Below, piece after piece: positions 1-62,200 of a DNA stretch of 64,000 nucleotides. The stretch's first letter is position 1. Each line of letters starts with the position of its first letter. The notes below the pieces were generated by a model. That model was not told where the DNA came from and did not search any database. It saw only the letters and a list, made by a program, of their open reading frames with translations. The position numbers and the translations under genes were made by a program. The stretch is from Escherichia coli 042. Its GTDB lineage: Bacteria; Pseudomonadota; Gammaproteobacteria; Enterobacterales; Enterobacteriaceae. The stretch lies in the NCBI RefSeq assembly GCF_000027125.1, contig NC_017626.1, one strand, 5' to 3'.

Positions 1-531
1 TACGAATAATAGTTCAACACACAGGTAATCCCATGCGTTAAATTTAACGTTTAAAAAATACTGAATAGCGAAGATCGTACACGTTGCAATAGATGCAATT
101 GCGATCGGAACCGTGAGAGATTTATTGGAATTGAGAGATTGAAAATAGCTATTTGAGAAATTAAAAAATAAAGCAACAGGTAAGGCTAACACAATAGGAA
201 TATAGACATTATATTGATAACCCTGAACAAAAGAATACAAACAAAACAGTAGTAAAACAATTACTCCAGAAAGAATTTTTTGTGCAAACGTTACATTTAA
301 TAGTTTTATTTTATCTGTAGAATCATTATATTTTTTTATAACAAACAGATCCACACCAAAATCAGTAACCACCCGAAGGACTTCGAGAAAACCAACTAAA
401 AAAATGAACTCTCCGCCTACATCTTCTCCTAAGGAACGAGTAATCAGAATTATTGCAAGTGTTTTAAAACCGAAGTAACATATTTTATTAAATAGCGAAA
501 AAATGCCATCGGAGAAAATTTCTTTGATCAT
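1..531 (-). CDS. O-antigen flippase Wzx-like, 5' portion only; gene continues beyond window start
   Basis: Manual translation of minus strand from ATG at 531-529: 177 codons open to the window edge in very AT-rich DNA; product MIKEIFSDGIFSLFNKICYFGFKTLAIILITRSLGEDVGGEFIFLVGFLEVL... is hydrophobic with a Wzx-type N-terminal pattern. Not in the ORF track because the stop lies outside the window. Confidence 0.5.
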   Translation of the reverse strand, partial: MIKEIFSDGIFSLFNKICYFGFKTLAIILITRSLGEDVGGEFIFLVGFLEVLRVVTDFGVDLFVIKKYNDSTDKIKLLNVTFAQKILSGVIVLLLFCLYSFVQGYQYNVYIPIVLALPVALFFNFSNSYFQSLNSNKSLTVPIAIASIATCTIFAIQYFLNVKFNAWDYLCVELLFV

Positions 532-572
532 GTCATGCCTACTGGTGAGATCCTGGTCGAAAAATAAACCAC

Positions 573-1904
573 TTACTGACCATGATAAATTTTATTTTTA
601 ACAAGTAATGGAGATATAAGAACAATCGGCAATGATTTTAGAAGAAAAGCCAATGGCAAAATCAGTTCACCACGAACAGCATAAAAAAATCCAGATATCA
701 TGGAGATGGCAACAAAGTTTATTATTATCCGTTGATTATTTAGTCCCCATTTAATAAAAAGCATCACCCCTGATAAATACAGTAAATAAATAATCACTCC
801 CAAGTTTAGACTCAGCAACGATGACTCTAACAATCCTGAAGATGACAACGCAATACCAGAGGATACATCACCTAAAACAATTATTGAAAAATCTTTTGCG
901 ATTTGTTGATCATCAAGAAAACCAAGACCGCTTAGCGGTAATACTTGTGTGAATACCACAGCGGGATGAAGTTGATCCCATCCTGATGATTGCATATCAA
1001 ACAAATTCTGCATCCCCCCAAGAGTAGAGGATAGCGAATCTAAAACAATGCCAATATAAATCATAAAATCGATTTGGTACCCTTCACGGAAATACGATAC
1101 CATCGAGAAGCATAAAAAACCGGCGATGAGAAATATTGGTTTTGAGAGTTGCTTAAATAAATTTCTTACTCTATACTCATTAGAGTACATATATAGTATA
1201 AAAATACAAATCACTGAAAAGAAAAACTTATTACGTATTCCAATAGCTAAATCAGATGCAAGTAAAACAAATGCAATAACTTTAATGTAGGTCGGTGTTT
1301 TAAAATAAAAAGTGGACAATGACATTACAACTGCAAAACCACTAATAGCACGAATAAAAAATGGAACTTGGGATAGCAATTCTTCGCTTTCAGTATAAAT
1401 TGCTAAATGCCCTTCTCCTGAATTCAATATAAACATAAGATAAATTAATATTTTGTATAATTGACACAGTGCAACAATAGAAAACAAAATATAAAATAAA
1501 CTAGTTAAATATCTTTTTTCTTCTTTTATGACAGTCTCTGTTGTTTGCAAGTAAAGGATGGAATTGATCAACATCCCCCAGATACAAATTATTTCAAACC
1601 CATGATTTGCGTTTTTAAAATAGTAAAGATAAATCGATGGCAAACCAATAATCAAAGAAAAAACGAATGCAAAAAGTAAGGTTAGTGATAAATAGCGAAC
1701 TCTATTAATATAATAATAGAACATCAAAACAACTAATAGCGCTGTAGATATAGTGGCTAAAATATCAATATACACTTGCGATACAAATGTATCCGCCCCT
1801 CCCCACAAGAAACATGAGGATAGTGAAAGAAATACAGAAAAATATATAGCCAGATGTTTAAACTGTATTTTATTGCACAATAATGAATAATATTGCTTAT
1901 GCAT
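573..1904 (-). CDS. polytopic membrane protein, putative O-antigen polymerase (Wzy-like)
   Basis: 443-aa ORF made of many hydrophobic segments and no recognisable enzymatic motif; position inside an O-antigen cluster. Wzy assignment is inferred from context. Confidence 0.45.
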   Translation of the reverse strand: MHKQYYSLLCNKIQFKHLAIYFSVFLSLSSCFLWGGADTFVSQVYIDILATISTALLVVLMFYYYINRVRYLSLTLLFAFVFSLIIGLPSIYLYYFKNANHGFEIICIWGMLINSILYLQTTETVIKEEKRYLTSLFYILFSIVALCQLYKILIYLMFILNSGEGHLAIYTESEELLSQVPFFIRAISGFAVVMSLSTFYFKTPTYIKVIAFVLLASDLAIGIRNKFFFSVICIFILYMYSNEYRVRNLFKQLSKPIFLIAGFLCFSMVSYFREGYQIDFMIYIGIVLDSLSSTLGGMQNLFDMQSSGWDQLHPAVVFTQVLPLSGLGFLDDQQIAKDFSIIVLGDVSSGIALSSSGLLESSLLSLNLGVIIYLLYLSGVMLFIKWGLNNQRIIINFVAISMISGFFYAVRGELILPLAFLLKSLPIVLISPLLVKNKIYHGQ

Positions 1905-2087
1905 AGTAATTAGCTTTACTAGTGAAGTAACTCATTTGAAAAATAAGAAACAGTTAATTTTACAATCTCTTATTCGGGATGAACGCAAATAAAAACACCA
2001 ATGCTAAATATAAACAATTTATAAACAATCTATTACTGAGCGGTTAAATGACAAACCGCTCAAGAGTAGAAAAAAGTTTATATTTTT

Positions 2088-3509
2088 TTACAAAAGAGTA
2101 ACTTTATGCAAAACTTCTAACACTAATTTTTCAGCTTTTATTATGTTATCTGCTTCTGCATAGCATCGCAATTCAGGTGCGTTGCCTGACGGTCGCAAAT
2201 GGATTATTGAACCATCACTTAGTGTCAATCTTAACCCGTCAATTGTATCCACCGATTGTACATGAAGATCGACAAAGCCTATTCTTTCGATAAATTCTTG
2301 AGGATTTTCTTGAGCTGACGCGATAATGCTTTTGCTTTTGCTTGTTGCAAAATTTTGAACTCTATTTGAGTAGGTAAATCGTGGTGGCAACTCCGCCAAG
2401 AGTTTTGAAATAGTCACATTATTTTTTATAGCCAGTGCCAGTACCATTAAAGCAGGCAAAACAGCATCTCTTGTTGGAAGCGCTTTAATCATACCGCTGT
2501 TATAATTTACATCGCTACCTAAAAGATACCCACCGTTAGCCTCAAACCCTGCAACCCTATCAAAACTATTATTCAGAGAATCAAACGCTGAAATGACGTA
2601 TGGTGAACCAATTTTAGTCAGCGTTACATGATTAAACCACCCGCAAGTCTGAATAACCGTATTACAACTTACAGGTACAGCTACCGCTTCAATATTCATT
2701 GCCTTTGAGCAAAATAGTCCTAATATATCACCCCGTAACCAAACGCCATTTTCGTCAGCAACCAAAGGACGATCGCCATCACCATCGGTAGAAAAAATCA
2801 TATCGAGGTCATACTCAGATGACCAGTGTAAAGCTTTTTCTTCATCTTCTTTTGATACTGCTTCAGTATCAATAGGCACAAACTCATCACTTCTACCAAT
2901 ACTTACAACTTCAGCACCAAGCTTACTGAATATTTCTGAATAAAGATCCCGTCCCGCACTTGAATGTTCATAAATCCCGATACGTTTACCTTTAAATATA
3001 TTTGAAAAAATTGAAGTGTTTCTCTCGATATAAGTATCAGCGGCACGCTTTGAACATTGTAATTCTGGCAATACAGTTACATCAGGATACTCTTTTTCAG
3101 CATGTATAATGCTGTTCTCATTTTCTTTTGAAATTTCCCCGTCTGGACGATAGAATTTCAAACCATTTCTATCAAATGGAATATGACTTCCAGTAACCAT
3201 TATTGCAGGAATCCCATCGGCAATCGCTTGATTTGCCAAAGCTGGAGTTGGAATTACACCGTAGTAAATAGGTTTAATACTACATTCCAACAATGCTGCT
3301 GCGCAAGCTTGTGCCATAGCATAGCTGCTTGGGCGATTATCTATTGCGAGCGCAACCTCTTTAAAAGAAAAATCCTTCATCATTACATCGATAAAAGCAT
3401 AAGTGAATGCAGCACACACGTTGGGTGTAAAATCTTTCACTAATCCACGAGCACCACTTGTACCAAATGCAATTCCGCTATTTTTAATTACATCATTGGT
3501 AATATTCAT
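2088..3509 (-). CDS. phosphomannomutase/phosphoglucomutase-family sugar phosphate mutase (manB-like)
   Basis: ORF-track protein has a [11 protein letters not shown] active-site serine loop and DGDGDR metal-binding loop typical of alpha-D-phosphohexomutases. Start trimmed to the ATG at 3509 (MNITNDV...), which avoids overlap with manC. Confidence 0.7.
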
Positions 3510-3513
3510 ATAA

Positions 3514-4929
3514 TTATTTATCCTCAACACGACCATATTTATCACTTAGGCGCACAATATCATCATCACCTAGATATACACCCGACTGAATCTCAATTAC
3601 TTCTAATGGTATCTTTCCTGGATTTTCCAAGGTATGAACTGTGCCAATTGGTATGAAAGTTGACTCATTTTCAGTGACGAAAAAAGTGCGTTCGCCGCAA
3701 GTCACCTTTGCAGTACCAGCGACAACCACCCAATGCTCAGCTCGATGATGATGCATTTGTGTTGAGAGACATTCACCAGGCTTAACGGTAATACGCTTTA
3801 CCTGATAACGGTCGCCACGTTCTACAGAATCATAACGTCCCCAAGGACGATAGACTTCGCGATGGGATATATGTTCGCTACGTTTTTGCTTTTTAAGAAT
3901 TTCGACAATCTTCTTTATGTCTTGTACGTTGTCTTGCTGTGCTACCAGGAGCGCATCTTTAGTTTGAACTATAATAAGGTTATTAACTCCTACAGTGCTG
4001 ATCAGTGAACCTTCAGAGTAAATGTAGTTGTTCCTGCTGTCATAGTTAATTACATCGCCATGCGATACGTTTTCATGTTCATCTTTCTCTGATATTTCCC
4101 AAAGTGATGTCCATGAACCGATGTCACTCCAGTCAGCATCAAGTGGAATAACTACACAATCCTGAGTTTTTTCCATTACCGCATAATCAATTGACTCATC
4201 GGGACATTCTGCAAAGACATCAGAATTTAATCTGATAAAATCTAGATCAGTACTAGCACTGGAAAGCGACTCTTTACACGCTGCTAAAATATCAGGGCGA
4301 AATTTTTTCAATTCATCTAAATATACGCTCGCCTTGAACATGAACATACCACTATTCCACAAATAGCATTTTTGTTCGAGATAATTTTTAGCCGTTTCTA
4401 AATCAGGTTTTTCGACGAAAGAATTTACTTTAAATACAGAGTTTTTAACTTGTTCGCCCTTTTTAATATAGCCATACCCAGTTTCAGGTTTGGTCGGGAC
4501 GATGCCAAAAGTCACTAACTTATTGTCAACGGACTCTTGTTCTGCAGCTAAAACAGCTGCATGGAAGGCTTCAATATCCTGAATAGCATGGTCAGCAGCA
4601 AGAACCAGCATATGATGATCGCCATGGAGTTCTAGAGACTTTAGAGCAGCCAGCGCAACGGCGGGCGCAGTATTTCTACCTACAGGTTCTAGAATAATCT
4701 GGAAGTCATCCACACCGAACTGTCGCAATTGTTCAGCAACAATAAATCTATGCTCATTATTGCTAACAATGACAGGAGGCAAACAATTTAATCCATCAAG
4801 TCTCTTCAACGTTTCCTGGAGCAAACTATTTTCATTAATCAATGATAAAAATTGTTTCGGGTATAACGAACGCGAAAGAGGCCATAAGCGAGTACCAGAA
4901 CCACCGGCCATAATAATTGGGATAATCAT
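3514..4929 (-). CDS. manC: mannose-1-phosphate guanylyltransferase / mannose-6-phosphate isomerase (type II)
   Basis: 471 aa; N-terminus [27 protein letters not shown] is the nucleotidyltransferase signature; a cupin-like C-terminus; clear paralogue of cpsB at 17171-18607. Confidence 0.85.
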
Positions 4930-4930
4930 T

Positions 4931-6133
4931 TTATTTAACAGACTCCTTAATTTTCTGGATATATGGGCTCAATTTAGCTTCCCATGAAAAATTCTCACCG
5001 ATAAACTTTTTCGCAACTAATGCTGTTTCGGTATATTTATCCAGATTTGTTATAAAATAATTTAATACACGTAAATATTCTTCTTTTGTATTGGCAACAT
5101 AAATCTCCTTACCCTCCTCTGCTCCCAAGCCTTCAAAGCCTACAGTAGAAGAGATACAAGGTAATCCCAACGCCATATATTCAAGTACCTTATTTTGGAT
5201 ACCTGCCCCTAATCTAATAGGACATACACCAATATGCCCATCAGCTGCTGCATAAGTTATGCTATCAACTTCACCTGTGACAACAACGCCAGGCTGGCTT
5301 TCTAACCAACTCTTATCTTTATCTGTAATACGTCCGATGACCTTAAATTCAAAATTACCATGCTTGTTAAGAAATGGTAAAACTTCCTTGGTGAACCATC
5401 TCACACCATCCATATTTTGCAAAGAATATAAATTACCTATAAATACAAGGGTTATCTTTTTATCTTTAGCTATTTTTCGTTCTGAAAAAGGTAAGCTAAC
5501 GGCATCAACACCATTTCCACAGACTAATACATTATTCGGACGGTCTGGATATAAATAATCGGAGTCAACCTGTGATACCAAAGTAGTCAAGCTGAACTTG
5601 TTATTTATAGTTCGCTCATATCGTTCGAGTCTTTTTTGTTCAAAAGAATATACAAATGTTTTTAAACTCAATAAAGATGCTTTTTCCTTTACTCGTTTAT
5701 AATTAAGTGAAATGGCATCGGTCATCTCTAAAAAATTTATATCTTTATTCTCTTTCACATAATCACCAACCCTTATCAAATGTGAAAGAGTTGCAGAATG
5801 TTCAGGTAATAACTGCTTAAGTTTATCTTCAAATTCTTTAGATTTATAATACCCAATCTGTAGGGGAGTATTTGAAAACAAAGAGAATATGACATTTAAA
5901 ATAGATTTTTTCTTTGAAAGATATACTCTGTGAACACTACTAAAAACTTCACGATCATATTCATAGTTGAGCTCTTCGCGTTTATCACACAGACTCAGCA
6001 ACGTAAGATCATAATGCTTAGACAGTTCTTTACAGATCTTATAGATACGTAATCGATCCCCACCAATGACAGGAAACGGGAACCGTGGAGTCAAAACTAA
6101 TATCTGTTTCTTATTTATATCAATATTACTCAT
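4931..6133 (-). CDS. glycosyltransferase, GT4 family (GT-B fold)
   Basis: 400 aa; C-terminal half has the GT4 pattern (GNG..., E-x7-E-like [10 protein letters not shown]); ATG start; located in the O-antigen cluster. Confidence 0.7.
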
Positions 6134-7130
6134 AAATCTTTCTCAATTCATTTTCAAATAAAATATGTTCATGCAGAGCTTTCCTTTCGACACTGGGTGA
6201 ATTATCTACCAAGTATGAATAGACTTCATAATACTCAGAATAGTAAGTATAAAAGAAAATATTCGAATCCTTTTGTTCGCGGAAAGCAGAGATCCGTGTG
6301 CATATAACATTTTTGCATGTGAGTTTTGCTTCAGCTAAAGTCCTTCCATACCCCTCGGCAAGCGAATGAGCCCAAACAATTTTAGAATTACAATATAGTT
6401 TGACGACTTCCTCTAAAGAAACAAAACCAATAATTTCAATTTCTTTATCTGTATCCCGCCCATCAATTAAGTCGTTAACCTTGCTAATACCATTCCCACA
6501 ACCTAATATTTTTAATGGTATTCTTTCTTCCCTTGGGATTGAAAAATAATAGTCCAGAGCTGTGCCTAGATCCTTATTATCCCCTAAACCTGAAACTAGA
6601 AGTAAATATCCAAGATCTTTTATTTCGGTAACATTAGCAATTTTCTCAAATGAGAAAAATGGATTTGGGAGCAGGATAGATTCTATACACTTAAATAGCG
6701 ATATTCTCTTAGATACTCGCTGAGTGCTTTGAGAAATAAATATTACTTTCTTTGCTAAAAAAGATGAAAAATAAATACAGACTTTCACATAAATGGCAGC
6801 AAGATTTCGTTTATTTTTCTTAAGACTAATGAAGTCATGAATTATAACAATTGCCTTACCTAATAACAAGTCAATGATGGAACTACTATTATAGGGATAT
6901 ATATTATACTTAGTTCTATAAAATATACCCATAATTGGTATTAAAAGCTGCTCTACTATTATAAAAAGAACATTCAGAAACCATGAAGGCAGCTTATGGA
7001 ATGCTTTTGGACATGCAACATAAATAACCTGAACATTATTGTCTCTTAACTTTTGCACAAGTTCAGAAGTATAGATCGGTATTCCTCTTTTCAAAATACC
7101 ATCAAAAAAATTATTTACAATTACTTTCAT
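6126..7130 (-). CDS. glycosyltransferase, GT4-like
   Basis: ORF-track frame 6126-7163 begins with TTG; the internal ATG at 7130 (MKVIVNNFF...) has an AAGAG Shine-Dalgarno ~8 nt upstream. C-terminal LAEGYGRTLAEA motif resembles GT4 enzymes. Confidence 0.6.
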   Translation of the reverse strand: MKVIVNNFFDGILKRGIPIYTSELVQKLRDNNVQVIYVACPKAFHKLPSWFLNVLFIIVEQLLIPIMGIFYRTKYNIYPYNSSSIIDLLLGKAIVIIHDFISLKKNKRNLAAIYVKVCIYFSSFLAKKVIFISQSTQRVSKRISLFKCIESILLPNPFFSFEKIANVTEIKDLGYLLLVSGLGDNKDLGTALDYYFSIPREERIPLKILGCGNGISKVNDLIDGRDTDKEIEIIGFVSLEEVVKLYCNSKIVWAHSLAEGYGRTLAEAKLTCKNVICTRISAFREQKDSNIFFYTYYSEYYEVYSYLVDNSPSVERKALHEHILFENELRKIYE

Positions 7131-7229
7131 GTTTGCTCTTAAGTTTATTTCAGATATTATCAATAGTATAAAAATAGTCAGGATTATTATTTCTTATTTT
7201 GAGAACGCATCATATAAACACAATCTTAC

Positions 7230-7268
7230 CACGCTACCGCCCCTGGCTTAACAGCTACCAGTGCACTA
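7230..7268 (-). promoter_or_regulatory. JUMPstart element with ops (GGCGGTAGCGTG), RfaH-dependent antitermination site in the O-antigen operon leader
   Basis: Minus-strand sequence TAGTGCACTGGTAGCTGTTAAGCCAGGGGCGGTAGCGTG matches the 39-bp JUMPstart consensus and ends with the ops element. Confidence 0.85.
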
Positions 7269-7523
7269 GCAAAATGCCAAAGATGTACCCCGCCCCGCTA
7301 GCTATCGCAAAGCTATCTTAAATTCAAACGCCAATTGTCTTACCAAATGCTGTCAGAAACAAGGATAAATCCAACAAAAAATAGATTAAACTTAGTAGGT
7401 TAACTCGTTGTTATTCTTTGTTTTAAAAAGAAAAACGACAGTAACATTCCTTTGTTTAAAGCATAGACGCCGGGATGTTAGCTGCCGCTATTTATCTAAA
7501 TTATTGTTACATTGGCTTGGGAT

Positions 7524-8417
7524 CTATTCCCCGAGCAACTTCTCAATGCTCTTACGGAACTTTGGCCCTTCCTTCAGGTTGCGCAGTCCATACTTCACAA
7601 ACGCCTGCATATAGCCCATTTTTTTACCGCAGTCGTAGCTGTCGCCGGTCATCAGCATGGCATCAACGGACTGTTTTTTCGCCAGTTCGGCAATAGCATC
7701 AGTCAGCTGAATACGCCCCCATGCACCAGGTTGCGTGCGTTCAAGTTCCGGCCAAATATCGGCAGAAAGCACATAGCGACCAACGGCCATGATGTCTGAG
7801 TCCAGCGTCTGCGGCTGATCCGGTTTTTCGATAAATTCGACGATGCGGCTGACTTTACCTTCACGATCCAGTGGTTCTTTGGTCTGAATGACGGAGTATT
7901 CAGAGAGGTCACCCGGCATACGTTTTGCCAGCACCTGGCTGCGGCCCGTTTCGTTGAAGCGCGCAATCATGGCAGCAAGGTTATAGCGTAGCGGATCGGC
8001 GCTGGCGTCATCGATAACAACGTCTGGCAGTACCACGACAAATGGGTTGTCACCAATGGCAGGTCGTGCACATAAAATGGAGTGGCCCAAACCTAAAGGT
8101 TCGCCCTGACGCACGTTCATAATGGTCACGCCCGGCGGACAGATGGACTGCACTTCCGCCAGTAGTTGACGCTTCACGCGCTGTTCAAGGAGAGATTCTA
8201 ATTCATAAGAGGTGTCGAAGTGGTTTTCGACCGCGTTCTTGGACGCGTGAGTTACCAGGAGGATTTCTTTGATCCCTGCAGCCACAATCTCGTCAACAAT
8301 GTACTGAATCATTGGCTTGTCGACGATCGGTAGCATCTCTTTGGGAATCGCCTTAGTGGCAGGCAACATATGCATCCCAAGACCCGCTACAGGAATAACT
8401 GCTTTTAAATTCGTCAT
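7524..8417 (-). CDS. galF: UTP-glucose-1-phosphate uridylyltransferase paralogue GalF
   Basis: Protein [30 protein letters not shown]... matches GalF as I recall it; start trimmed from the ORF-track MDEI extension to the ATG at 8417. Confidence 0.9.
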
Positions 8418-8591
8418 TATTTCATCCACCTGTAAAATGGTTGCTGAATTATAGCTTGTTCGATTTTTTTCGCCAGCATCAATTACCCTGAATTGATTAC
8501 TGAATTACTTGTGATGTTACGCCGCTTCGTTGTGGATTGCAGTAGCATTGTTCCTAAGTATGGCTCCATTTTTCCAGGAATGGTCGCAAAT

Positions 8592-9986
8592 CTACTCTCT
8601 CCGTTCTGGCAATCTAAAGTTAATCTTTTCCACATTAACAATATGGTGATTAACCCTGTCGATATCGACGGAGCTTTGCCCTCTTTCATTCACCGCATGA
8701 ACATTTGCAAGAGACAGCAGTGTTTCTTTTTTCGCCATAAAGACGCCGCGAACGTCTTTGCGCATGTCGAAGTTCATGCTCAATGCGGGTCCAACAGAGG
8801 ATTCCTGCATCACTTTGATATTTCGTATAAAAAGATGTTGCGGTTTGTTGTGTAACTCCAACGAGGCACGCTTCATCTCAATGTTAGTCAGTGCAACAAA
8901 GGAGACAGCATTCCCGGCAGAGATTTGGATACCGCGCAATTTGTAAGCAAGGTGGGTGTTATCCAGCTGAATATTATTCACTCGGAAATTTTGCGGTATC
9001 GAGAGATATTTGCCTTTAATTACCCCATAACCGATTAACATCCCGGCGCTATTAATCATTTCAATATTATCAATCACGAAATTGTCACAACCGTAAATAG
9101 CGACCGTGGCGTTATCAATACCTGCTTTCTTACTGAAATCCGGCGTGATATTGCGGGCTTTGATATTACGAATAACAAAATGTTTACCATTTTCAACATG
9201 GATCAGTTGTCGACAATCCGATCCCGTGATATTCGCCACGACAAAGTTTTTCACTGCCTGGTCTTCCGGGTAGTTATTATCATAAGTACTCCCCGCAAGG
9301 CCTATGCCGATTCCCCAGTTGATTTTGCCGTTGGTACAGTTGATGCGCTCGATGATGTGGTCGGAGATCAAAATATCACTGTCGTTAATCGCCACGTTCC
9401 ATTCAATGGCGTCCCCCTGTAAGTCGCTGAACTTACAATTGGTGATGTTGGCACCGATAATCTGGTTATGAAATCCCTGACGTAAGATGGCGTAATTAGC
9501 GTGGCTGACAGTGAGGTTATCGATGGTCAGGTTGCGCATGACCCGTTTGTTTTTGCCGCCGATATAAATCTGCGTTACTGGGCCAAAGCCGCTCATCGCC
9601 AGCCCTTTGATGGTGCAGTCAGAGCCGCGCACATCCAGGGTGATGTTATGCATACTGCCGCCCTCCTCCCCTGTCACCTGGCTGCCGTCTTGTAAGACAA
9701 AACGCCCTCTGCCGTTGCCGCGCAGGCTTCCAAGGATGTGTAACGTTTTGCCAGGAGGAATGAAGATGCCGGTGTTGATATTTTCACAAACCAATCCGGC
9801 AGGCACGACGACCGTTTGCCCTTCGCTGAAGGCTTGTTTAAATGAAGCAATCCAGTCGTGTGGGTTGTAGTCGTTAATGTTAACGCTTTGCCGGGCAGGA
9901 AGTGCTCGGGCGAAAGGCGTATGAAGGAAGGCAAGCGCCGAGCTTACCGTCAGGAAAGTGCGTCGGGAGAGTTTTTTAAATGGCAT
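8592..9986 (-). CDS. wcaM: colanic acid biosynthesis protein WcaM
   Basis: 464 aa, same length as K-12 WcaM; signal-peptide-like N-terminus; last gene of the wca operon, adjacent to galF. Confidence 0.88.
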
Positions 9987-12555: not shown

Positions 12556-12745
12556 GCCTGATGCGACGCTGGCGCGTCTTATCAGGCCTACAAGACCCGA
12601 GCACAGAACCGTAGGCCGGATAAGGCGTTCACGCCGCATCCGGCATTCAGTGCCTGATGCGACGCTGACGCGTCTTATCAGGCCTACAGGTCCCGAGCAC
12701 AGAACCGTAGGACGGATAAGGCGTTTTACGCCGCATCCGGCAACC
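12556..12745. repeat. REP/BIME cluster (several palindromic units) between wzxC and wcaK
   Basis: Repeated GCCTGATGCGACGCTGGCGCGTCTTATCAGGCCTAC and CCGGATAAGGCGT...CGCCGCATCCGGCA units in alternating orientation. Confidence 0.85.
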
Positions 12746-15698: not shown

Positions 15699-17069
15699 TT
15701 ACTCGTTCAGCAACGTCAGCAGAGTTCGCGTTCTCGCTTCCATCAGCGGCACATCACCGCGTGATTCCACATTCAACCGCACCACCGGTTCGGTGTTGGA
15801 GGAGCGCAGGTTAAAGCGCCAGTCGGCAAAGGTCATACTGATGCCATCGGTGCGATCCACCGCCAGCGCCTCGCGGCTAAAATGCTGTTCCACGCGATTA
15901 ATTGCCTCAACGGGTTGCGCCAGTTTGCTGTTGATCTCACCGCTTGCCGGAAACGCTGCCATCCGGTCGCGCACCAGTTCGCCCAGCGTTTTCCCTTTCA
16001 GGCACACCAGTTCGGCGACCAGCAGCCACGGGATCATGCCGCTGTCGCAGTAGGCAAAATCACGGAAGTAATGGTGGGCGCTCATTTCGCCACCGTAGAT
16101 GGCGTCTTCCTTGCGCATCCGTTCTTTAATAAAGGCGTGTCCGGTTTTCGACATTACCGGGGTGCCGCCTGCGGCCGTCACCACATCAACGGTGTTCCAG
16201 GAGAGACGCGGATCGTGGATGATCTTCGCGCCGGGATTTTTTTCGAGGAACGCTTCTGCCAGCAGGCCGACAATGTAGTAGCCCTCGATAAACTGCCCTT
16301 TTTCGTCAAACAGAAAACAGCGGTCAAAATCGCCATCAAAGGCAATGCCCATATCCGCGCCGTGTTTGATGACCGCATTGCGGGTGTCGTCGCGGCATTC
16401 CGGCAGCAATGGATTAGGAATACCGTTGGGGAAATTGCCGTCCGGCGTGTTGTGTACTTTGATGAATTCCACCGGTGCGCCGAGGGCGTTAAAGCGGGCT
16501 TCGATGGCGTCCACCACCGGACCCGCCGCGCCGTTCCCGGAGTTAATCACCAGCTTGAGCGGCGTGAGGTTTTTGACGTTGATATAACCGAACAGGTGAT
16601 CAACGTAAGCGTCACGCAGATTGATTTGCTGATAGCGACCGCGTTTGGTTTCATCGACAGGAGGGAAGTCATTGGCTTCTGCCAGGCGCTGGACGTCGCG
16701 CAGTCCGGTATCACCGCTGATCGGGCGAGCCCCTTCGCGCACCAGCTTCATGCCGTTGTAATCCATCGGGTTATGGCTGGCGGTAACTTCGATGCCGCCA
16801 TCCACGCCGAGATGGAACGTGGCGAAATAAATCTCTTCGGTGCCGGACATGCCAATATCCAGCACATCGACGCCCGCATCCTGTAAACCTTTCGCCAGCG
16901 CCAGTTTTAAGGTTTCGCTGGTGAGGCGGACATCACCGCCTAACACAATAGTTTTCGGTTTGAGAAATTCGCCATAGGCGCGACCAATGCGCCAGGCAAT
17001 ATTTTCATTCAGTTCTTCGCCTAATTTCCCGCGAATATCATAGGCTTTAAAGCAGGTTAATTTTTTCAT
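15699..17069 (-). CDS. cpsG: phosphomannomutase
   Basis: TASHNP active-site motif; start trimmed to [14 protein letters not shown] (ATG at 17069), giving 456 aa. Confidence 0.9.
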
Positions 17070-17170
17070 ATCGTTACCCTTTTTCAGGCAATAGTTGGCC
17101 CTGACCGAAACGGCCAATTTTGTTTTTGTCGTTATTTACCGGAGAATTAATCCGGTTGATTATTCAACTG

Positions 17171-18607
17171 CTACACCCGTCCGTAGCGATCCGCGAAGCG
17201 CACCACATCATCCTCTTCGAGGTAAGACCCGGAGCGCACTTCAATTAAATCGAGTGGAATTTTCCCCGGGTTTTCCAGGCAGTGCGTCGCCCCCAGCGGA
17301 ATATAAATCGACTCGTTTTCACCAAGCAGTTTGATATCACCGTCAATAGTGACTTTTGCCGTTCCTGCGACAACCACCCAGTGTTCCGCGCGGTGATGGT
17401 GCATCTGTACCGACAAACCCTCGCCCGGTTTCACGGTGATGCGTTTCACCTGGTAGCGGTCGCCCGCGTCGATAGAGTCATATTTGCCCCACGGGCGATA
17501 CACTTCGCGATGCACCCGATGCTCATGGCGACCGTCGGCTTTGATCTGCTCGACCACTTTTTTCACATCCTGCACCGCGTTACGGTCGGCAATCAGCACC
17601 GCATCTTTGGTCTGCACCACTACCAGATCTTTCACCCCGACGGTGGTGACCAGGCCAGATTCGGCGTACACATAGCTGTTTTCAGTTTTGTGATTAATCA
17701 CATCGCCGTGGCAAACGTTGCCCTCGGCGGTGTGGGCGCTGATCTCCCATAATGAAGACCAGGAACCGACATCGCTCCAGCCCGCATCCATCGGCACCAC
17801 AACGGCATCTGCCGTACGTTCCATGACCGCGTAATCCACAGACTCTTCCGGGCAGGCGAGAAACGCTTCTTCATCCACACGAATAAAATCGAGATCCGGA
17901 TCGACGGCGCTCATCGCTTTTTCACAGGCGTCGAGAATATCCGGGCGATATTTTTTCAGCTCTTCTAGATAGCGTCCGGCGCGGAACAGGAACATACCGC
18001 TGTTCCAGTAATATTCGCCGCTTGCCACATAGGCCTGAGCGGTTTCCAGATTCGGTTTTTCGACAAACTGCGCCACTTCAAAGGCCACCGTATCCTGCTC
18101 ACCCGCCGACACTTCACCGCGACGAATATAGCCATATCCGGTTTCAGGTAGATCCGGCACAATGCCGAAGGTCACCAGCTTGCCTGCTTCGGCATACGGC
18201 ATGGCGTTACGCACGGCGGCACGGAACGCGTCTTCGTCGGCAATCACATGATCCGCTGCCAGCACCAGCATTAATGGGTCGCTCTCCGGGCTATGACGTT
18301 TTGCCGCCAGCGCCGCCAGCGCAATGGCAGGTGCAGTGTTACGCCCTGCCGGTTCGAGAATAATGTTCTCGGTGAGTTTGTTCAGTTGACGCAGCTGTTC
18401 CGCGACAATAAAGCGGTGCTGCTCATTGCAAATCACCACCGGGCTTTCGCACTCCACGCCGTTCAGGCGGCAGATGGTGGTTTGCAGCATGGTGAGATCG
18501 CCTTTCAGGCATAAAAACTGCTTGGGGTAAAGTACGCGGGAAAGCGGCCATAAGCGGCTCCCGGAGCCACCTGCCATCACAACTGGATAGAGTTTCGACT
18601 GCGCCAT
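17171..18607 (-). CDS. cpsB: mannose-1-phosphate guanylyltransferase
   Basis: 478 aa; [14 protein letters not shown] nucleotidyltransferase motif. Confidence 0.9.
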
Positions 18608-18609
18608 AA

Positions 18610-19833
18610 TTATCCCCGAATATCATTTATAAATTGACGTAACACGTTCTCTTTATCGAGCGTGCGTTCGGCATATTCACGTGCCACCGTGTTGTGTTTG
18701 GGCAGCAGGAGCGCCTGACGAATCCCCGCCACCAGCGCCTCGACCGATTCCGGTTCAACGCAAACCGCAATGCCCGGAAAGGTTTCGCAAAGGTGTCCCA
18801 GTTCGGTGTGAGCTTCTGCGGTAATCACCGCGTTGCCGCCTACCGCCAGAATATTGGTCAGTTTCGACGGCAATACGGCATCCGCCGCGCCGCGTTTTTG
18901 CACCACCAGATGGCAATCGCCCATCTTCAGCAGTGCGGGTAAAGCGTCATACGATTGCAGCGGGAAGAATTGCATGTTGCGCAGTCCACGCTGTTGCGCC
19001 ATTTTTTCCAGTCGCGCTTTGCCGCCGCCCTGCCCGACAATGGCAAAAATCAGCGGTTCATCACGCAGGCGTTCGGCAGCTTCAATAACGTTTTCCAGCC
19101 CCTGCTTTTCACCAATATTGCCGGAGTAAAGAATGATTTTTTTGTTATCCGGCAGGCCAAGCTGGTTACGAAGGGCATCAACATCGGCCTCTGCGACATG
19201 CTGAAAACGGGTAATTTCTGACCAGTTGGGGAAGAAGATGACGTTTTCTGCCGCCACGCCTTTTTCGATGGCTTTATTCATCATCGAACGCGAAATCGTG
19301 GAGACGTTATCGACGTTATGCAGTCCGCTACGTTCGAACGCCGTTGCCAGCTGTGCCACTTTGCCGCCTTTGCCTTTTCCGGCAAGGCCCAGCCCCAGCA
19401 TGGCGTCCACTTCGTAATCCTGAATATGCAGCACGGTACGCGCGCCAGAGAGTTTCGCCAGCAGGCGCATTCCCGGCGTGCAAAACAGCGTTGGCACTAC
19501 GCCGATAATGCGATCCGGCTTCCAGCGACGTTGCGCCATCAACGGGAAAAAACTGCTGGCGGCAAAACTGCCGAGATGCAACAGGCGTTTCAGGGTGCTC
19601 GGCTGTTTTGGCACGTACAGCGGGCAGCGCCACACCGTGGCGGCCCCCTCTTCTCGTTTGTACCGCCAGGCGGAATAGTTCTCGCCCACCTGCCATTGCG
19701 GGTAGTAAGGCGGTGCGGTAATAACCCGCACCTCATGACCTTGTGCCGCCAGCCATTCCACCATCTCTCCGGTGTATTTGCCGATACCGGTTAACTCCGG
19801 CGAGTAGTTAATGCCGTAGACCAGTATTTTCAT
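18610..19833 (-). CDS. wcaI: colanic acid glycosyltransferase WcaI
   Basis: 407 aa GT4-like protein; conserved position. Confidence 0.88.
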
Positions 19834-31545: not shown

Positions 31546-31584
31546 CACGCTACCGCCCCTGGCTTTTTAGCTACCAATACACTG
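31546..31584 (-). promoter_or_regulatory. JUMPstart element with ops (GGCGGTAGCGTG) in the wza leader
   Basis: Minus-strand sequence CAGTGTATTGGTAGCTAAAAAGCCAGGGGCGGTAGCGTG; shares the ...AGCCAGGGGCGGTAGCGTG core with the element at 7230-7268. Confidence 0.85.
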
Positions 31585-31769
31585 ATTTAGCTTAATTTTT
31601 AAAACCCTCTCAACATACAGTCGTTGATGAGAAAGGGTTATTGCGGAAATTAACTTCCGAATATAAGGTGACATTATGGTAATTGAATATTGGCTCTCCA
31701 ATAATGCAGGAGGAAGTGTTACAGCTAACGGAATAGCAGGCAAGGTAACAATTCGGCAATTGGCTATTT

Positions 31770-31785
31770 TTAAGAATTATATTAA
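31770..31785 (-). promoter_or_regulatory. candidate RcsAB-box-like site upstream of wza
   Basis: TAAGAATTATATTAAG partly resembles the RcsAB box consensus TaAGaatatTCctA; the match is weak and the position is not verified. Confidence 0.25.
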
Positions 31786-32025
31786 GTGTCATTCAATATG
31801 GTTTTTAGGAGTTTCTTTAGGTTGACAATATTTAATATAGTGTCTCCACATGCGATATTTCTTAAATAATGTTTTATTATTACCACTTTTAATTCAGGGA
31901 TAATGTGAGGTTATAAACCTCAAATAATATGAGATAAATAGTGCTGCAACATTGCATTTTTGCCCCGATTTATCCATGATCGAATTGTGACATTTGTCAT
32001 ACAACGAATAGGTTTTGTACTTACT

Positions 32026-47811: not shown

Positions 47812-47992
47812 AAGAAATCCTTTCTTAGAGAATTATTGAGGTCCGGTATCATACCGATTGCAATAATGAAATAAGAGCAAACGAAGAAACTTTCAGAATT
47901 AGGCCCGGCGGCGCAGAAAATTTTGCTATTCGCCTCGCAAGAACGAAGAGCCGTCGATTGACACTAAGGGCGGAGTGACATAATTTCAGGAG

Positions 47993-48134
47993 TGAGGGTT
48001 AGGGAGAGGTTTCCCCCTCCCCCTGGTGTTCTTAGTAAGCCTGGAAGCTAATCACTAAGAGTATCACCAGTATGATGACGTGCTTCATCATAACCCTTTC
48101 CTTATTAAAAGCCCTCTTCTCCGGGAGAGGGTTT
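47993..48134 (+). ncRNA. sibA: Sib antisense sRNA (type I antitoxin), unit 1 (SibA-like); coordinates approximate
   Basis: Sigma70-like promoter TTGACA (47958-47963), 17-nt spacer, TAATTT; fully antisense to ibs unit 1; ends at a stem-loop CCCTCT...AGAGGG followed by T residues. Confidence 0.7.
48032..48091 (-). CDS. ibsA: Ibs type I toxin peptide, 19 aa (MMKHVIILVILLVISFQAY)
   Basis: Manual translation of the minus strand; hydrophobic Ibs-family peptide encoded opposite the Sib RNA. Confidence 0.8.
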   Translation of the reverse strand: MMKHVIILVILLVISFQAY

Positions 48135-48327
48135 CCCGTTTCAGCGTCCCGCTGAAATCGTCGGCTTACCTCCTTTCGCCCTGAATGCAGTCTATCGCTA
48201 ACGCGTGAACAAAATAGTTTCCTCTGTGATTATTGCGTAACGACTCGCAAAGAATATTTGCTGGCAGGATCGCAGACTGCAAAGCCTGCAGATTGACAAT
48301 CTTATCGTGAAGGCATACTTTCAGGAG

Positions 48328-48465
48328 TGAGGGTAGAGCGGGGTTTCCCCCGCCCTGGTAGTCTTAGTATGCTGGGTAGCTAATCACTAAGAGCACCACG
48401 ATGATGAGTATCTTCATCATGACCCTTTCCTTATTTAAGGCCCCTTCCTCGGGAGGGGCTTTCCC
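48328..48465 (+). ncRNA. sibB: Sib antisense sRNA, unit 2 (SibB-like); coordinates approximate
   Basis: Promoter TTGACA (48293-48298), 17-nt spacer, TACTTT; terminator stem GCCCCT...AGGGGC plus T-run. Confidence 0.7.
48364..48420 (-). CDS. ibsB: Ibs type I toxin peptide, 18 aa (MMKILIIVVLLVISYPAY)
   Basis: Manual translation of the minus strand, antisense to Sib unit 2. Confidence 0.75.
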   Translation of the reverse strand: MMKILIIVVLLVISYPAY

Positions 48466-48655
48466 GTTTCAGCGTCCCGCTGAAATCGTCGGCTTACCTC
48501 CTTTCGCCCTGAATGCAGTCTATCGCTGACTTGCGGATAAAATAGTTTCCAGTGTGATTATTGCGTAACGTCTCGCAAAGAATATTTGCTGGCAGGATCG
48601 CAGACTGCAAAGCCTGCAGATTGACAATCTTATCGTGAAGGCATACTTTCAGGAG

Positions 48656-48793
48656 TGAGGGTAGAGCGGGGTTTCCCCCGCCCTGGTAGTCTTAGTAAGC
48701 TGGCCAGCTAATGACTAAGAGCACCACGATGATGAGTAGCTTCATCATGACCCTTTCCTTATTTATGGCCCCTTCCTCGGGAGGGGCTTTCCC
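48656..48793 (+). ncRNA. Sib antisense sRNA, unit 3 (additional SibB-like copy); coordinates approximate
   Basis: Near-identical to unit 2 with a 328-bp period; promoter and terminator are conserved. Confidence 0.65.
48692..48748 (-). CDS. Ibs type I toxin peptide, 18 aa (MMKLLIIVVLLVISWPAY)
   Basis: Manual translation; differs from the unit 2 peptide at two positions. Confidence 0.75.
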   Translation of the reverse strand: MMKLLIIVVLLVISWPAY

Positions 48794-48955
48794 GTTTCAG
48801 CGTCCCGCTGAAATCATCGGCTTACCTCCTTTCGCCATGCACGTAGTCTATCGCTAACGCGTAGATAAAATAGTTTCATGTGTTATTACTGGATGCGTGC
48901 TCGCAAATGTGCCCGTCATTCAGACGATTCCCGACAGTGTTTCATAATTCCTCCA

Positions 48956-48973
48956 TTTTTCTCCCTTATTGGC
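48956..48973 (+). promoter_or_regulatory. BaeR box in the mdtA promoter
   Basis: TTTTTCTCCCTTATTGGC matches the BaeR consensus TTTTTCTCCATDATTGGC at 17 of 18 positions, about 55 bp upstream of the mdtA start. Confidence 0.7.
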
Positions 48974-49026
48974 TGGCTACACTAGTATCATTCCGCGAAA
49001 CGTTTCAGGAAGAGAAACTCTTAACG

Positions 49027-50274
49027 ATGAAAGGCAGTTATAAATCCCGTTGGGTAATCGTAATCGTGGTGGTTATCGCCGCCATCGCCGCATTCTGGTT
49101 CTGGCAAGGCCGCAATGACTCCCAGAGTGCAGCCCCAGGGGCGACGAAACAAGCGCAGCAATCGCCAGCGGGTGGTCGCCGTGGTATGCGTTCCGGCCCA
49201 TTAGCCCCGGTTCAGGCGGCGACCGCCGTAGAACAGGCAGTTCCGCGTTACCTCACCGGGCTTGGCACCATTACCGCCGCTAATACTGTTACGGTGCGCA
49301 GCCGCGTGGACGGTCAACTGATGGCGTTACATTTCCAGGAAGGCCAGCAGGTCAAAGCAGGCGATTTACTGGCAGAAATTGACCCCAGCCAGTTCAAAGT
49401 TGCATTAGCACAAGCCCAGGGCCAACTGGCAAAAGATAAAGCCACGCTTGCTAACGCCCGCCGTGATCTGGCGCGTTATCAGCAACTGGCAAAAACCAAT
49501 CTCGTATCCCGTCAGGAGCTGGATGCCCAACAGGCGCTGGTCAGTGAAACCGAAGGCACCATTAAGGCTGATGAAGCAAGCGTCGCCAGCGCACAGCTGC
49601 AACTCGACTGGAGCCGCATCACCGCACCAGTCGATGGTCGCGTTGGTCTCAAGCAGGTTGATGTTGGTAACCAAATCTCCAGTGGTGATACCACCGGGAT
49701 TGTAGTGATCACCCAGACGCATCCTATCGATTTGCTCTTTACCCTGCCGGAAAGCGATATCACTACCGTAGTACAGGCGCAAAAAGCCGGAAAACCGCTG
49801 GTTGTTGAAGCCTGGGATCGCACCAACTCGAAGAAATTAAGTGAAGGCACGCTGTTAAGCCTCGATAACCAAATCGATGCCACTACCGGTACGATTAAAG
49901 TGAAAGCACGCTTTAATAATCAGGATGATGCGCTGTTTCCCAATCAGTTTGTTAACGCGCGTATGTTAGTCGACACCGAACAAAACGCCGTAGTGATCCC
50001 AACAGCCGCCCTGCAAATGGGCAATGAAGGCCATTTTGTCTGGGTGCTGAATAGCGAAAACAAGGTCAGCAAACATCTGGTGACGCCGGGCATTCAGGAC
50101 AGTCAGAAAGTGGTGATCCGCGCAGGTATTTCTGCGGGCGACCGCGTAGTGACGGACGGAATTGATCGCCTGACCGAAGGGGCGAAAGTGGAAGTGGTTG
50201 AAGCTCAAAGCGCCACCACTTCGGAAGAGAAAGCCACCAGCCGCGAATACGCGAAAAAAGGAGCACGCTCCTGA
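49027..50274 (+). CDS. mdtA: RND efflux membrane fusion protein MdtA
   Basis: Start trimmed to [14 protein letters not shown] (ATG at 49027), 415 aa. Confidence 0.9.
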
Positions 50275-53200
50275 TGCAGGTGTTACCCCCGAGCAGCACA
50301 GGCGGCCCGTCGCGCCTGTTTATTATGCGTCCTGTCGCCACCACGCTGCTGATGGTGGCGATCTTACTCGCCGGGATTATCGGTTATCGCGCCCTGCCCG
50401 TTTCGGCGCTGCCGGAAGTGGACTATCCAACCATTCAGGTAGTCACGCTCTACCCAGGTGCGAGCCCGGATGTCATGACCTCTGCCGTTACCGCGCCGCT
50501 TGAACGCCAGTTTGGGCAGATGTCTGGCCTGAAACAGATGTCGTCGCAAAGTTCCGGCGGTGCGTCAGTTATCACCTTACAGTTCCAGCTAACATTACCG
50601 CTCGATGTCGCCGAGCAGGAAGTGCAGGCCGCGATTAACGCTGCGACCAACTTGTTGCCGAGCGATCTGCCTAACCCGCCGGTTTACAGCAAAGTGAACC
50701 CGGCAGATCCACCAATCATGACGCTCGCCGTCACCTCAACCGCCATGCCAATGACGCAAGTGGAAGATATGGTGGAAACCCGCGTCGCGCAGAAAATCTC
50801 GCAGATTTCCGGCGTCGGCCTGGTGACACTTTCCGGCGGTCAGCGTCCGGCTGTTCGCGTCAAACTTAACGCTCAGGCGATTGCCGCCCTCGGCCTGACC
50901 AGCGAAACCGTGCGCACCGCCATTACCGGCGCTAACGTTAACTCGGCAAAAGGTAGCCTCGACGGCCCTTCCCGTGCGGTTACGCTTTCCGCGAACGACC
51001 AGATGCAATCCGCCGAAGAGTATCGCCAGCTAATCATCGCCTACCAGAACGGCGCACCGATTCGTCTGGGCGATGTCGCAACCGTAGAGCAAGGTGCAGA
51101 AAACAGCTGGCTCGGCGCATGGGCGAATAAAGAACAGGCCATTGTGATGAATGTTCAGCGCCAGCCCGGTGCTAACATTATCTCCACCGCCGACAGCATC
51201 CGGCAGATGCTGCCACAGCTCACCGAGAGTCTGCCGAAATCGGTGAAGGTGACGGTACTTTCTGACCGTACCACCAATATCCGCGCATCCGTCGATGATA
51301 CTCAGTTTGAATTGATGATGGCTATCGCGCTGGTAGTCATGATTATCTACCTGTTTTTGCGCAATATTCCGGCGACCATCATTCCCGGCGTCGCAGTGCC
51401 GCTGTCGTTAATCGGCACCTTCGCGGTCATGGTGTTTCTCGATTTTTCAATCAATAACCTGACGCTGATGGCGTTAACTATCGCCACCGGATTTGTGGTC
51501 GATGACGCCATCGTGGTGATCGAAAACATTTCCCGCTATATCGAAAAAGGCGAAAAACCGCTGGCGGCAGCGCTCAAGGGCGCGGGTGAAATCGGCTTTA
51601 CCATTATCTCGCTGACCTTCTCACTGATTGCGGTGTTGATCCCACTGCTGTTTATGGGCGATATCGTCGGGCGACTGTTCCGCGAATTTGCTATTACACT
51701 GGCGGTCGCGATTTTGATCTCAGCCGTGGTGTCGCTGACCCTGACGCCGATGATGTGCGCACGGATGCTCAGCCAGGAGTCGCTGCGTAAACAGAACCGC
51801 TTCTCCCGTGCCTCGGAGAAAATGTTCGACAGAATAATCGCCGCCTATGGTCGTGGACTGGCGAAAGTGCTGAATCATCCGTGGCTGACTTTAAGCGTAG
51901 CGCTCAGCACGCTGCTGCTTAGCGTTCTCTTGTGGGTGTTCATTCCGAAAGGTTTCTTCCCGGTACAGGACAACGGCATTATTCAGGGTACTTTGCAGGC
52001 ACCGCAATCCAGTTCCTTTGCCAATATGGCCCAGCGGCAACGCCAGGTTGCAGACGTGATTTTGCAGGATCCGGCGGTGCAAAGTTTGACCTCGTTTGTT
52101 GGCGTTGACGGCACTAACCCATCGCTGAACAGTGCGCGTTTGCAGATCAACCTCAAACCGCTGGATGAGCGTGATGACCGGGTGCAAAAAGTCATCGCTC
52201 GTTTGCAAACGGCGGTAGATAAAGTGCCGGGCGTCGATCTCTTCCTGCAACCAACGCAGGACCTGACCATCGATACTCAGGTCAGCCGCACCCAGTACCA
52301 GTTTACCTTGCAGGCAACTACACTGGATGCACTCAGCACCTGGGTGCCACAGTTGATGGAAAAACTCCAGCAGTTGCCACAGCTTTCTGATGTCTCCAGC
52401 GACTGGCAGGACCAAGGGCTGGTGGCGTATGTCAATGTTGATCGCGACAGCGCCAGCCGTCTGGGGATCAGCATGGCGGATGTCGATAACGCCCTGTACA
52501 ACGCGTTTGGTCAGCGGCTGATTTCCACTATTTATACTCAGGCTAACCAGTATCGCGTGGTGCTGGAACACAACACCGAAAATACCCCAGGCCTCGCGGC
52601 GCTGGATACCATTCGCCTGACCAGCAGCGACGGCGGCGTGGTGCCGCTAAGCTCAATTGCCAAAATTGAGCAGCGTTTTGCGCCGCTCTCCATCAACCAT
52701 CTGGATCAGTTCCCGGTAACGACTATCTCCTTTAACGTGCCGGATAACTATTCGCTGGGCGATGCGGTGCAGGCGATTATGGACACCGAAAAGACGCTGA
52801 ATCTGCCGGTGGATATCACCACGCAGTTCCAGGGCAGCACCCTCGCCTTCCAGTCGGCGCTGGGCAGCACTGTCTGGCTGATTGTCGCGGCGGTGGTGGC
52901 GATGTATATCGTGCTCGGCATTCTGTACGAGAGCTTTATTCACCCGATAACCATTCTCTCGACGCTACCCACCGCAGGGGTCGGCGCGCTGCTGGCATTA
53001 ATGATTGCCGGTAGCGAACTGGATGTGATCGCCATTATCGGCATTATTTTGCTGATCGGTATCGTGAAGAAGAACGCCATCATGATGATCGACTTCGCGC
53101 TGGCTGCCGAGCGCGAGCAAGGCATGTCGCCGCGCGATGCTATTTACCAGGCTTGTCTGTTGCGTTTTCGTCCGATCCTGATGACCACTCTGGCGGCTCT

Positions 53201-53396
53201 GCTTGGCGCGCTGCCGCTGATGTTAAGTACCGGGGTCGGCGCGGAACTGCGTCGTCCGTTAGGTATCGGCATGGTCGGCGGTCTGATAGTCAGCCAGGTG
53301 CTGACGCTGTTTACCACGCCGGTGATTTATTTGCTGTTCGACCGCCTGGCATTGTGGACCAAAAGCCGCTTTGCTCGTCATGAAGAGGAGGCGTAA
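50274..53396 (+). CDS. mdtB: RND efflux transporter MdtB
   Basis: 1040 aa, twelve-helix RND permease architecture. Confidence 0.92.
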
Positions 53397-56300: not shown

Positions 56301-56474
56301 GTATTGTCGGGCGGTGACGGCTCGGAGCTGCGGCAACCATTGGGGATCACCATTGTCGGCGGTCTGGTAATGAGCCAGCTTCTGACGCTGTATACCACGC
56401 CGGTGGTGTATCTCTTTTTCGACCGTCTACGGCTGCGTTTTTCGCGTAAACCTAAACAAACGGTAACCGAGTAA
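53397..56474 (+). CDS. mdtC: RND efflux transporter MdtC
   Basis: 1025 aa RND permease paralogous to MdtB. Confidence 0.92.
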
Positions 56475-59290: not shown

Positions 59291-60009
59291 CCGAGTTACC
59301 AATCGACGAAAACACACCGCGTATTTTGATCGTGGAAGATGAACCGAAGCTGGGGCAGTTGCTCATTGATTATCTGCGTGCTGCGAGCTATGCGCCGACG
59401 CTTATCAGCCACGGCGATCAGGTACTGCCGTATGTGCGCCAGACACCACCGGATCTGATCCTGTTGGATCTGATGCTGCCTGGCACCGATGGCCTGACGC
59501 TGTGCCGGGAAATTCGTCGTTTTTCTGACATTCCGATCGTGATGGTGACGGCGAAAATCGAAGAGATCGACCGCCTGCTCGGGCTGGAAATTGGCGCAGA
59601 TGATTATATCTGCAAGCCGTACAGCCCGCGGGAAGTCGTAGCGCGCGTCAAAACCATTTTGCGCCGTTGCAAACCGCAGCGCGAATTGCAGCAACAGGAT
59701 GCCGAAAGCCCGTTGATTATCGACGAAGGTCGTTTTCAGGCTTCATGGCGCGGTAAAATGCTTGACCTGACGCCTGCGGAATTTCGTCTGCTGAAAACGC
59801 TCTCTCATGAACCAGGAAAAGTGTTCTCCCGCGAGCAATTGCTCAATCATCTTTATGACGACTACCGCGTAGTAACCGACCGCACCATCGACAGCCACAT
59901 TAAAAACCTGCGTCGCAAGCTGGAATCTCTCGACGCCGAACAGTCATTTATCCGCGCCGTTTACGGCGTCGGTTACCGCTGGGAAGCCGACGCCTGCCGC
60001 ATCGTTTAA
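59287..60009 (+). CDS. baeR: OmpR-family response regulator BaeR
   Basis: 240 aa; receiver domain and winged-helix DNA-binding domain. Confidence 0.92.
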
Positions 60010-62079: not shown

Positions 62080-62113
62080 TACAGCTGCATTTATTAAGGT
62101 TATCATCCGTTTC

Positions 62114-62200
62114 GCTGAAAAACATAACCCATAAAATGCTAGCTGTACCAGGAACCACCTCCTTAGCCTGTGTAATCTCCCTTACACGGGCTTATTTTTT
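62114..62200 (+). ncRNA. cyaR: CyaR (RyeE) Hfq-dependent sRNA
   Basis: GCTGAAAAACATAACCCATAAAATGCTAGCTGTACCAGGAACCACCTCCTTAGCCTGTGTAATCTCCCTTACACGGGCTTATTTTTT matches the CyaR sequence as I recall it, including the intrinsic terminator. Confidence 0.85.

Follow-up and report, generated by a model that had tools for sequence, protein, structure and literature searches.

Introduction

The question raised by this locus is whether two 39-bp sequences on the minus strand of a 64-kb stretch of the Escherichia coli 042 chromosome (hereafter the window, i.e., the whole stretch of DNA analyzed) are genuine JUMPstart/ops elements, and whether they bring two polysaccharide operons under the control of RfaH. 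The first part can be answered with high confidence: the two elements are standard JUMPstart/ops leaders of the his-proximal polysaccharide region of E. coli. The feature is already known and ordinary: descriptions of the elements and where they lie, of the partner protein and of the way in which it is loaded appeared between 1994 and 2022. As to the second part, what is established about RfaH at ops sites in general would, by analogy, extend to this strain.

The ops motif is a consensus pause site at which RNA polymerase stops at U11, bases 3-8 serving the recruitment of RfaH and G12 the pause; a hairpin in the non-template strand of ops puts T6 into a pocket of RfaH, and RfaH, once loaded, excludes NusG and recruits ribosomes to leaders without Shine-Dalgarno sites (PMC5995543). 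The JUMPstart-RfaH mechanism is given as background for the colanic acid operon (PMC9976346, citing Stout 1996 and Hobbs & Reeves 1994) and likewise for O-antigen and group 1 capsule loci (PMC6128206).

Gene content of the region

The window lies near his on the E. coli chromosome and comprises the wza–wcaM, galF and O-antigen region. Genes were assigned from the list of open reading frames (ORFs) and from the RefSeq annotation of strains that are 100% identical over positions 1-9000. The colanic acid operon (wza-wzb-wzc-wcaABCDEF-gmd-fcl-gmm-wcaI-cpsB-cpsG-wcaJ-wzxC-wcaKLM; 8592-31367, minus strand) covers roughly 23 kb with a G+C content of 0.53. Its first gene, wza (31367-30228, minus strand), is an intact ORF, and wcaM is located at 9986-8592 (minus strand). 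Next to it on the same strand are galF (8417-7524) and the O-antigen genes of the O17/O44/O73/O77/O106 family (1-7130), the distal genes whose transcription RfaH is predicted to sustain. The first gene of the O-antigen cluster, identified from the ORFs and the annotation of the 100%-identical strains, encodes a glycosyltransferase (6126-7130, minus strand) and is followed by a GT4 glycosyltransferase gene, manC, manB, wzy (1904-573) and wzx, which leaves the window at its left end.

The O-antigen genes have a G+C content of 0.35, lower than the 0.53 of the colanic acid genes and of the remaining window, and this O-antigen block is present in only 92 of the 5426 complete E. coli genomes. Both observations fit the lateral acquisition of these genes that the original prediction had assumed. 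Its assignment of one leader to the O-antigen genes and of the other to wza was right according to the ORFs and the RefSeq annotation. What had been called the capsule operon is the wza operon, the product of which is colanic acid, a slime.

Several further features were recorded in the window. The O-antigen cluster carries a second manC/manB pair (2088-4929, minus strand; G+C about 0.39) besides cpsB/cpsG at 15699-18607. An algC RNA motif (RF02929, 78 bits against a cut-off of 34) is found at 17074-17123 (minus strand) in the cpsB/cpsG gap, directly before the phosphomannomutase gene, and a REP-like naRNA4 match (RF02564, 80 bits) at 12614-12684 (plus strand) within the 275-nt wzxC/wcaK gap. 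The lengths of the wzxC/wcaK and cpsB/cpsG gaps differ from those in strain GF60, which accounts for the offset of about 187 nt between the coordinates of the window and those of GF60. Three tandem Sib antitoxin RNAs (RF00113, 140-150 bits) are encoded on the plus strand at 47958-48106, 48293-48435 and 48621-48763, and each of them is opposed by a short Ibs toxin gene; the locus has two copies in K-12 strains, and three are common elsewhere in E. coli, including O104:H4 and O157:H7. The CyaR sRNA (RF00112, 101 bits) is located at 62112-62197 (plus strand), downstream of the mdtABCD-baeSR block (48880-60009).

The JUMPstart and ops elements

Read on the minus strand, the JUMPstart of the O-antigen leader is TAGTGCACTGGTAGCTGTTAAGCCAGGGGCGGTAGCGTG (7268-7230) and that of the wza leader, which heads the colanic acid operon, is CAGTGTATTGGTAGCTAAAAAGCCAGGGGCGGTAGCGTG (31584-31546). 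The Rfam covariance model for JUMPstart (RF01707, gathering score 35 bits) matched exactly the same two spans, 7230-7268 with 59.2 bits (E-value 4.6e-11) and 31546-31584 with 57.3 bits (E-value 1.6e-10), in both cases over its full length (model positions 1-38 of 38). The predicted coordinates and strand were confirmed. Both elements are non-coding and lie on the minus strand like the genes downstream of them, one in the gap between galF and the glycosyltransferase gene and the other in the gap between yegH and wza. They had been described as near-identical. This holds for the 3' 20 nt (AAGCCAGGGGCGGTAGCGTG), which are the same in both; over the whole 39-mer, 33 of 39 positions (85%) are identical, with mismatches at positions 1, 6, 8, 17, 18 and 19, and the wording is generous for the 5' half.

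A scan of the entire 64-kb window for GGCGGTAGNNTG, as the original prediction had proposed, yielded exactly two matches, 7230-7241 and 31546-31557, which lie on the minus strand at the predicted sites; 0.10 matches were expected by chance, and two or more were obtained in none of 100 shuffles. Each site is a complete 12-nt ops (GGCGGTAGCGTG), i.e., an RfaH loading site with a consensus pause at T11. The ops consensus GGCGGTAGnnTG is matched exactly at both, with bases 3-8 as well as T11 and G12 intact. In either case the motif belongs to an untranslated leader and is carried by its coding (non-template) strand, the strand that RfaH loading requires. In the O-antigen leader, 99 nt separate the end of the motif from the first start codon; in the wza leader it starts 190 nt and ends 178 nt before the ATG of wza.

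The 8-nt core GGCGGTAG is more widespread, with eight copies in the window; the full 12-nt ops, with its TG pause dinucleotide and an untranslated leader, is restricted to these two sites. Variants of ops with one mismatch numbered nine, against 3.1 expected, a count that includes the two exact sites; all of the non-exact variants are in coding regions or on the wrong strand. In CFT073, ops-like sites within coding regions do not recruit RfaH (PMC9765446). Within wcaI (18836-18847, minus strand), the non-template strand carries an intact 8-nt core (GGCGGTAGGCGG) but no TG pause dinucleotide.

The 5' part of the element can form a stem-loop. In the Rfam consensus structure of JUMPstart, a stem of 5 bp (CUGGU/GCCAG) encloses a 9-nt loop, and all five pairs are possible in both copies. 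At the O-antigen site the stem-loop (7243-7261, minus strand) pairs CUGGU (7261-7257) with GCCAG (7247-7243), that is, C-G, U-A, G-C, G-C and U-G; at the wza site (31559-31577, minus strand) UUGGU (31577-31573) faces GCCAG (31563-31559), the first pair being U-G and not C-G. In a sample of six E. coli copies (the two of the window, K-12 rfb and waaQ, CFT073 wzx and wza) the stem pairs are kept in all six, with standard pairs in 30 of 30 cells; waaQ shows the single compensatory change, from U-A to A-U, and wza the single wobble change, from C-G to U-G. Covariation within this six-sequence sample was not significant, as 91 of 500 shuffles scored as high. The stem is part of the minimum free energy (MFE) folds of the O-antigen and waaQ 51- to 54-mers and is absent from that of the isolated wza 51-mer; the z-scores of the leader folds are weak (-1.4 to -1.7). 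The exact role of the 5' stem-loop is less well defined than that of ops.

Transcription and translation signals of the two leaders

The elements had also been said to delimit the transcription units. They do mark the 5' leaders; the promoters, however, are placed further upstream, and the 3' ends are not defined by the elements. In CFT073, RfaH-modified polymerase continues past the O-antigen genes through gnd-ugd-wzzB (PMC9765446).

Upstream of the O-antigen element, a scan for the sigma-70 consensus found no minus-strand promoter in the galF/O-antigen gap. Two blocks, CCTTGTTTC and TTGGTAAGACAATT, are conserved between the window, K-12 and CFT073, and the 17-nt spacer between them varies. 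On the grounds of this conservation, TTGTTT (7362-7357), a 17-nt spacer and GACAAT (7339-7334) form a candidate O-antigen promoter (7334-7362, minus strand), from which transcription would start near 7328. Directly after the stop codon of galF, a hairpin followed by a U-run (7434-7489, minus strand) folds with -18.5 kcal/mol and a z-score of only -1.3; its K-12 counterpart, as judged by eye, is a long hairpin with a T-run. The hairpin at 7489-7434 is likely to be the galF terminator, which would separate galF from the O-antigen genes and make the latter a unit of their own.

For wza, a promoter scan and sequence reading gave two candidates upstream of JUMPstart (31673-31781, minus strand): a perfect TATAAT at 31781-31776 without a -35 hexamer, and TGGAGA-16-CATAAT at 31700-31673 (CATAAT at 31678-31673). 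The best match to the sigma-70 consensus upstream of wza was only 9/12. A search for the RcsAB box (consensus TAAGAATATTCCTA, with up to three mismatches) found none upstream of wza, and its total number of matches was at chance level. RefSeq lists, for GF60 and CFT073, a 49-aa hypothetical protein (WP_162829205.1) that corresponds to about 31676-31825 (plus strand) of the window; being antisense and overlapping the wza promoter region, it is probably a spurious gene call.

Sites resembling intrinsic terminators were not in excess within the two operons (19 against 16.8 and 25 against 19.4 expected from shuffles), and any signals that are overridden are therefore presumably dependent on Rho or H-NS and invisible in the sequence. 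No Shine-Dalgarno-like sequence precedes the start codon of wza in AAAGTGATAAATAAACAATG, and the only candidate for the glycosyltransferase gene is AAGAG, five nt before the ATG. Both are consistent with ribosome recruitment by RfaH; the lack of a good Shine-Dalgarno site at the first gene is a reported tendency of RfaH operons and no strict criterion.

Comparison with other JUMPstart and ops copies

Over the 623 nt upstream of wza the window is identical to K-12 MG1655 at 612 positions and to CFT073 at 609 (about 98%). The wza JUMPstart 39-mer is identical in the window, in K-12 (the element of Stout 1996) and in CFT073, and the distance of 190 nt between ops and wza is shared with CFT073. 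The gene itself is a frameshifted pseudogene in CFT073, whereas the ORF is intact in the window.

The O-antigen copy agrees with the JUMPstart of E. coli and Salmonella rfb loci (Hobbs & Reeves 1994; RF01707) in its 39 nt, its location on the galF side, its orientation, its stem-loop and its 3' ops; relative to the rfb copies of K-12 and CFT073, 36 of 39 positions are the same, with substitutions at 1, 8 and 21. The cassettes downstream differ, belonging to the O17/O44/O73/O77/O106 family in the window, to O16 in K-12 and to O6 in CFT073, and the first O-antigen start codon follows ops after 99 nt in the window and after 59 nt in CFT073. The leader aligns with both K-12 and CFT073 from galF to the last base of ops, after which similarity is lost; in the three-way alignment identity ends at column 302. 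In a megablast search across the species E. coli with the galF/O-antigen gap, partial matches end at query positions 291-298, position 294 being 7230 of the window. Since these matches stop only a few bases from the end of ops, JUMPstart is the last sequence to be conserved ahead of the serogroup-specific cassette. Towards galF, the gap (7131-7523) is unusually diverged from K-12 (78% identity overall).

A third JUMPstart copy of K-12 is located in the leader of waaQ (rfaQ), which has the same ops, GGCGGTAGCGTG, and the same stem-loop architecture as the window copies. It differs from them in its compensatory A-U stem pair and in a U-run directly after ops, which both window leaders lack; in K-12, this leader with its JUMPstart/ops is annotated as the 73-nt sRNA RirA. 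The ops sites of hly, kps (group 2 capsule) and F tra, none of which is in this window, share the same core and are all RfaH-dependent, but they are much further from the first gene than the window copies, and the CFT073 hly (GGCGGTAGCATG) and kps (GGCGGTAGCATA) ops differ at positions 10-12.

Of 5426 complete E. coli genomes, 5425 contain matches to the JUMPstart 39-mer; the number of places per genome has a median of three and reaches six at most. The wza leader occurs in about 4800 genomes. The rfaH gene, which is outside the window, is likewise found in 5425 of 5426 complete genomes and is thus almost certainly present in this strain.

Predicted RfaH loading at the two leaders

Given the intact ops motifs, the course of events at the two leaders would be as follows. 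RNA polymerase would start upstream of JUMPstart, transcribe into ops and pause at U11 of GGCGGTAGCGTG, where the exposed non-template DNA would form a small hairpin (pair C3:G8, T6 flipped out) that is recognized by RfaH. RfaH would then open, take the place of NusG on the polymerase and stay there for the remainder of the operon, where it would suppress pausing, termination by Rho and roadblocks formed by H-NS; its refolded C-terminal domain would bring the ribosome to leaders whose Shine-Dalgarno sites are weak. Operons that are long, AT-rich or poorly translated would thereby be expressed over their full length. Loading should be constitutive at the O-antigen operon; at wza it should matter only after the Rcs-dependent, H-NS-silenced promoter has fired. 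The colanic acid operon is silent unless it is activated by Rcs or freed from H-NS, and dependence on RfaH at wza would therefore be conditional.

The orthologous loci of CFT073 provide the closest experimental evidence. ChIP-seq of RfaH in this strain revealed eight ops-dependent loci (PMC9765446). The O-antigen operon ('wzx') is occupied in the wild type, with a 15.4-kb peak that extends through gndA, ugd and wzzB, whereas wza-wcaM is occupied only in a delta-hns delta-stpA background (PMC9765446). The signals vanish in delta-rfaH, and sigma-70 peaks as well as predicted starts are located upstream of ops; Data set S2 of the same study places the O-antigen ops 67 nt downstream of the start of the transcription unit and the wza ops 190 nt before wza (PMC9765446). 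Transcription starts downstream of the elements would leave ops out of the transcript, and in the CFT073 orthologues the start of the O-antigen unit and the sigma-70 peaks are upstream (PMC9765446), an outcome that favours the original prediction. The predicted RfaH-dependent antitermination of both operons thus finds support by analogy, ops being intact at both sites and the orthologous sites of CFT073 loading RfaH. Because RfaH occupied the colanic acid genes of CFT073 only in cells lacking hns and stpA, its physiological importance is less certain there than at the O-antigen genes.

Alternative explanations

The other readings that were considered are minor or do not exclude RfaH loading. 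An origin of both motifs by chance, for which nothing speaks apart from the shortness of the motif, is refuted by two exact matches against an expectation of 0.10, by the Rfam scores and E-values, by the correct orientation in the leaders of polysaccharide operons and by conservation of the element in 5425 of 5426 genomes. It is unlikely that the wza copy is largely a conserved relic, in which case RcsAB activation and H-NS silencing would set expression and RfaH would contribute little in nature. This reading draws on CFT073, where the RNA polymerase signal at wza is below background, RfaH is detected only in delta-hns delta-stpA and the locus was called 'cryptic RfaH-regulated' (PMC9765446), and on the host-like G+C content of 0.53, at which less counter-silencing would be needed than for the O-antigen genes at 0.35. 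Yet the element is perfectly conserved in K-12, CFT073 and the window amid leader bases that vary on its flanks, which argues for purifying selection; RfaH did load at the wza ops once the promoter was active (PMC9765446); and the literature cites Navasa et al. for a control of colanic acid production by RfaH in E. coli K92. That the O-antigen copy is mainly a recombination landmark, a conserved left-hand anchor for cassette swaps and not a regulatory signal, is very improbable: similarity to other serogroups does break off no more than a few bases from the end of ops, but such a sharp edge is also expected if selection keeps a functional leader beside a replaced gene block, the same element precedes wza and waaQ, neither of which is a swapped cassette, and a role as landmark is compatible with a regulatory one.

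A function of the elements that is exerted at least partly as RNA, in which the stem-loop and ops of the leader transcript act, for instance, as a short RirA-like RNA that titrates RfaH between the core, O-antigen and colanic acid operons, is rather improbable. Rfam models JUMPstart as a structured cis-regulatory RNA that both copies fit, the stem is kept in all six E. coli copies with one compensatory change and one change from C-G to U-G, and RirA has been reported to bind RfaH in an ops-dependent manner, its overexpression mimicking delta-rfaH. Against this, structural and biochemical work has shown that it is the non-template DNA of ops that RfaH recognizes in the paused complex (PMC5995543), both window leaders lack the waaQ-like U-run after ops that could make the 3' end of a short RNA, and the stem is missing from the MFE fold of the wza 51-mer, with the weak z-scores given above. 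The more specific proposal that the O-antigen and wza leaders release short RfaH-binding RNAs containing JUMPstart and ops, like RirA and in addition to DNA-based loading, so that three or four leaders per cell compete for scarce RfaH, has very little probability; if it were true, the output of LPS core, O-antigen and colanic acid would be coupled at the RNA level. The reading of both elements as DNA loading sites for RfaH is the one that is followed here.

Implications

The two elements are useful for annotation, as they mark the 5' leaders of both long polysaccharide operons, and the O-antigen JUMPstart further indicates where the serogroup-specific cassette has its left edge. Current understanding is not changed by their occurrence in this strain, the orthologous sites having been directly shown to recruit RfaH. 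An rfaH mutant of this strain is predicted to be rough and poorly mucoid.
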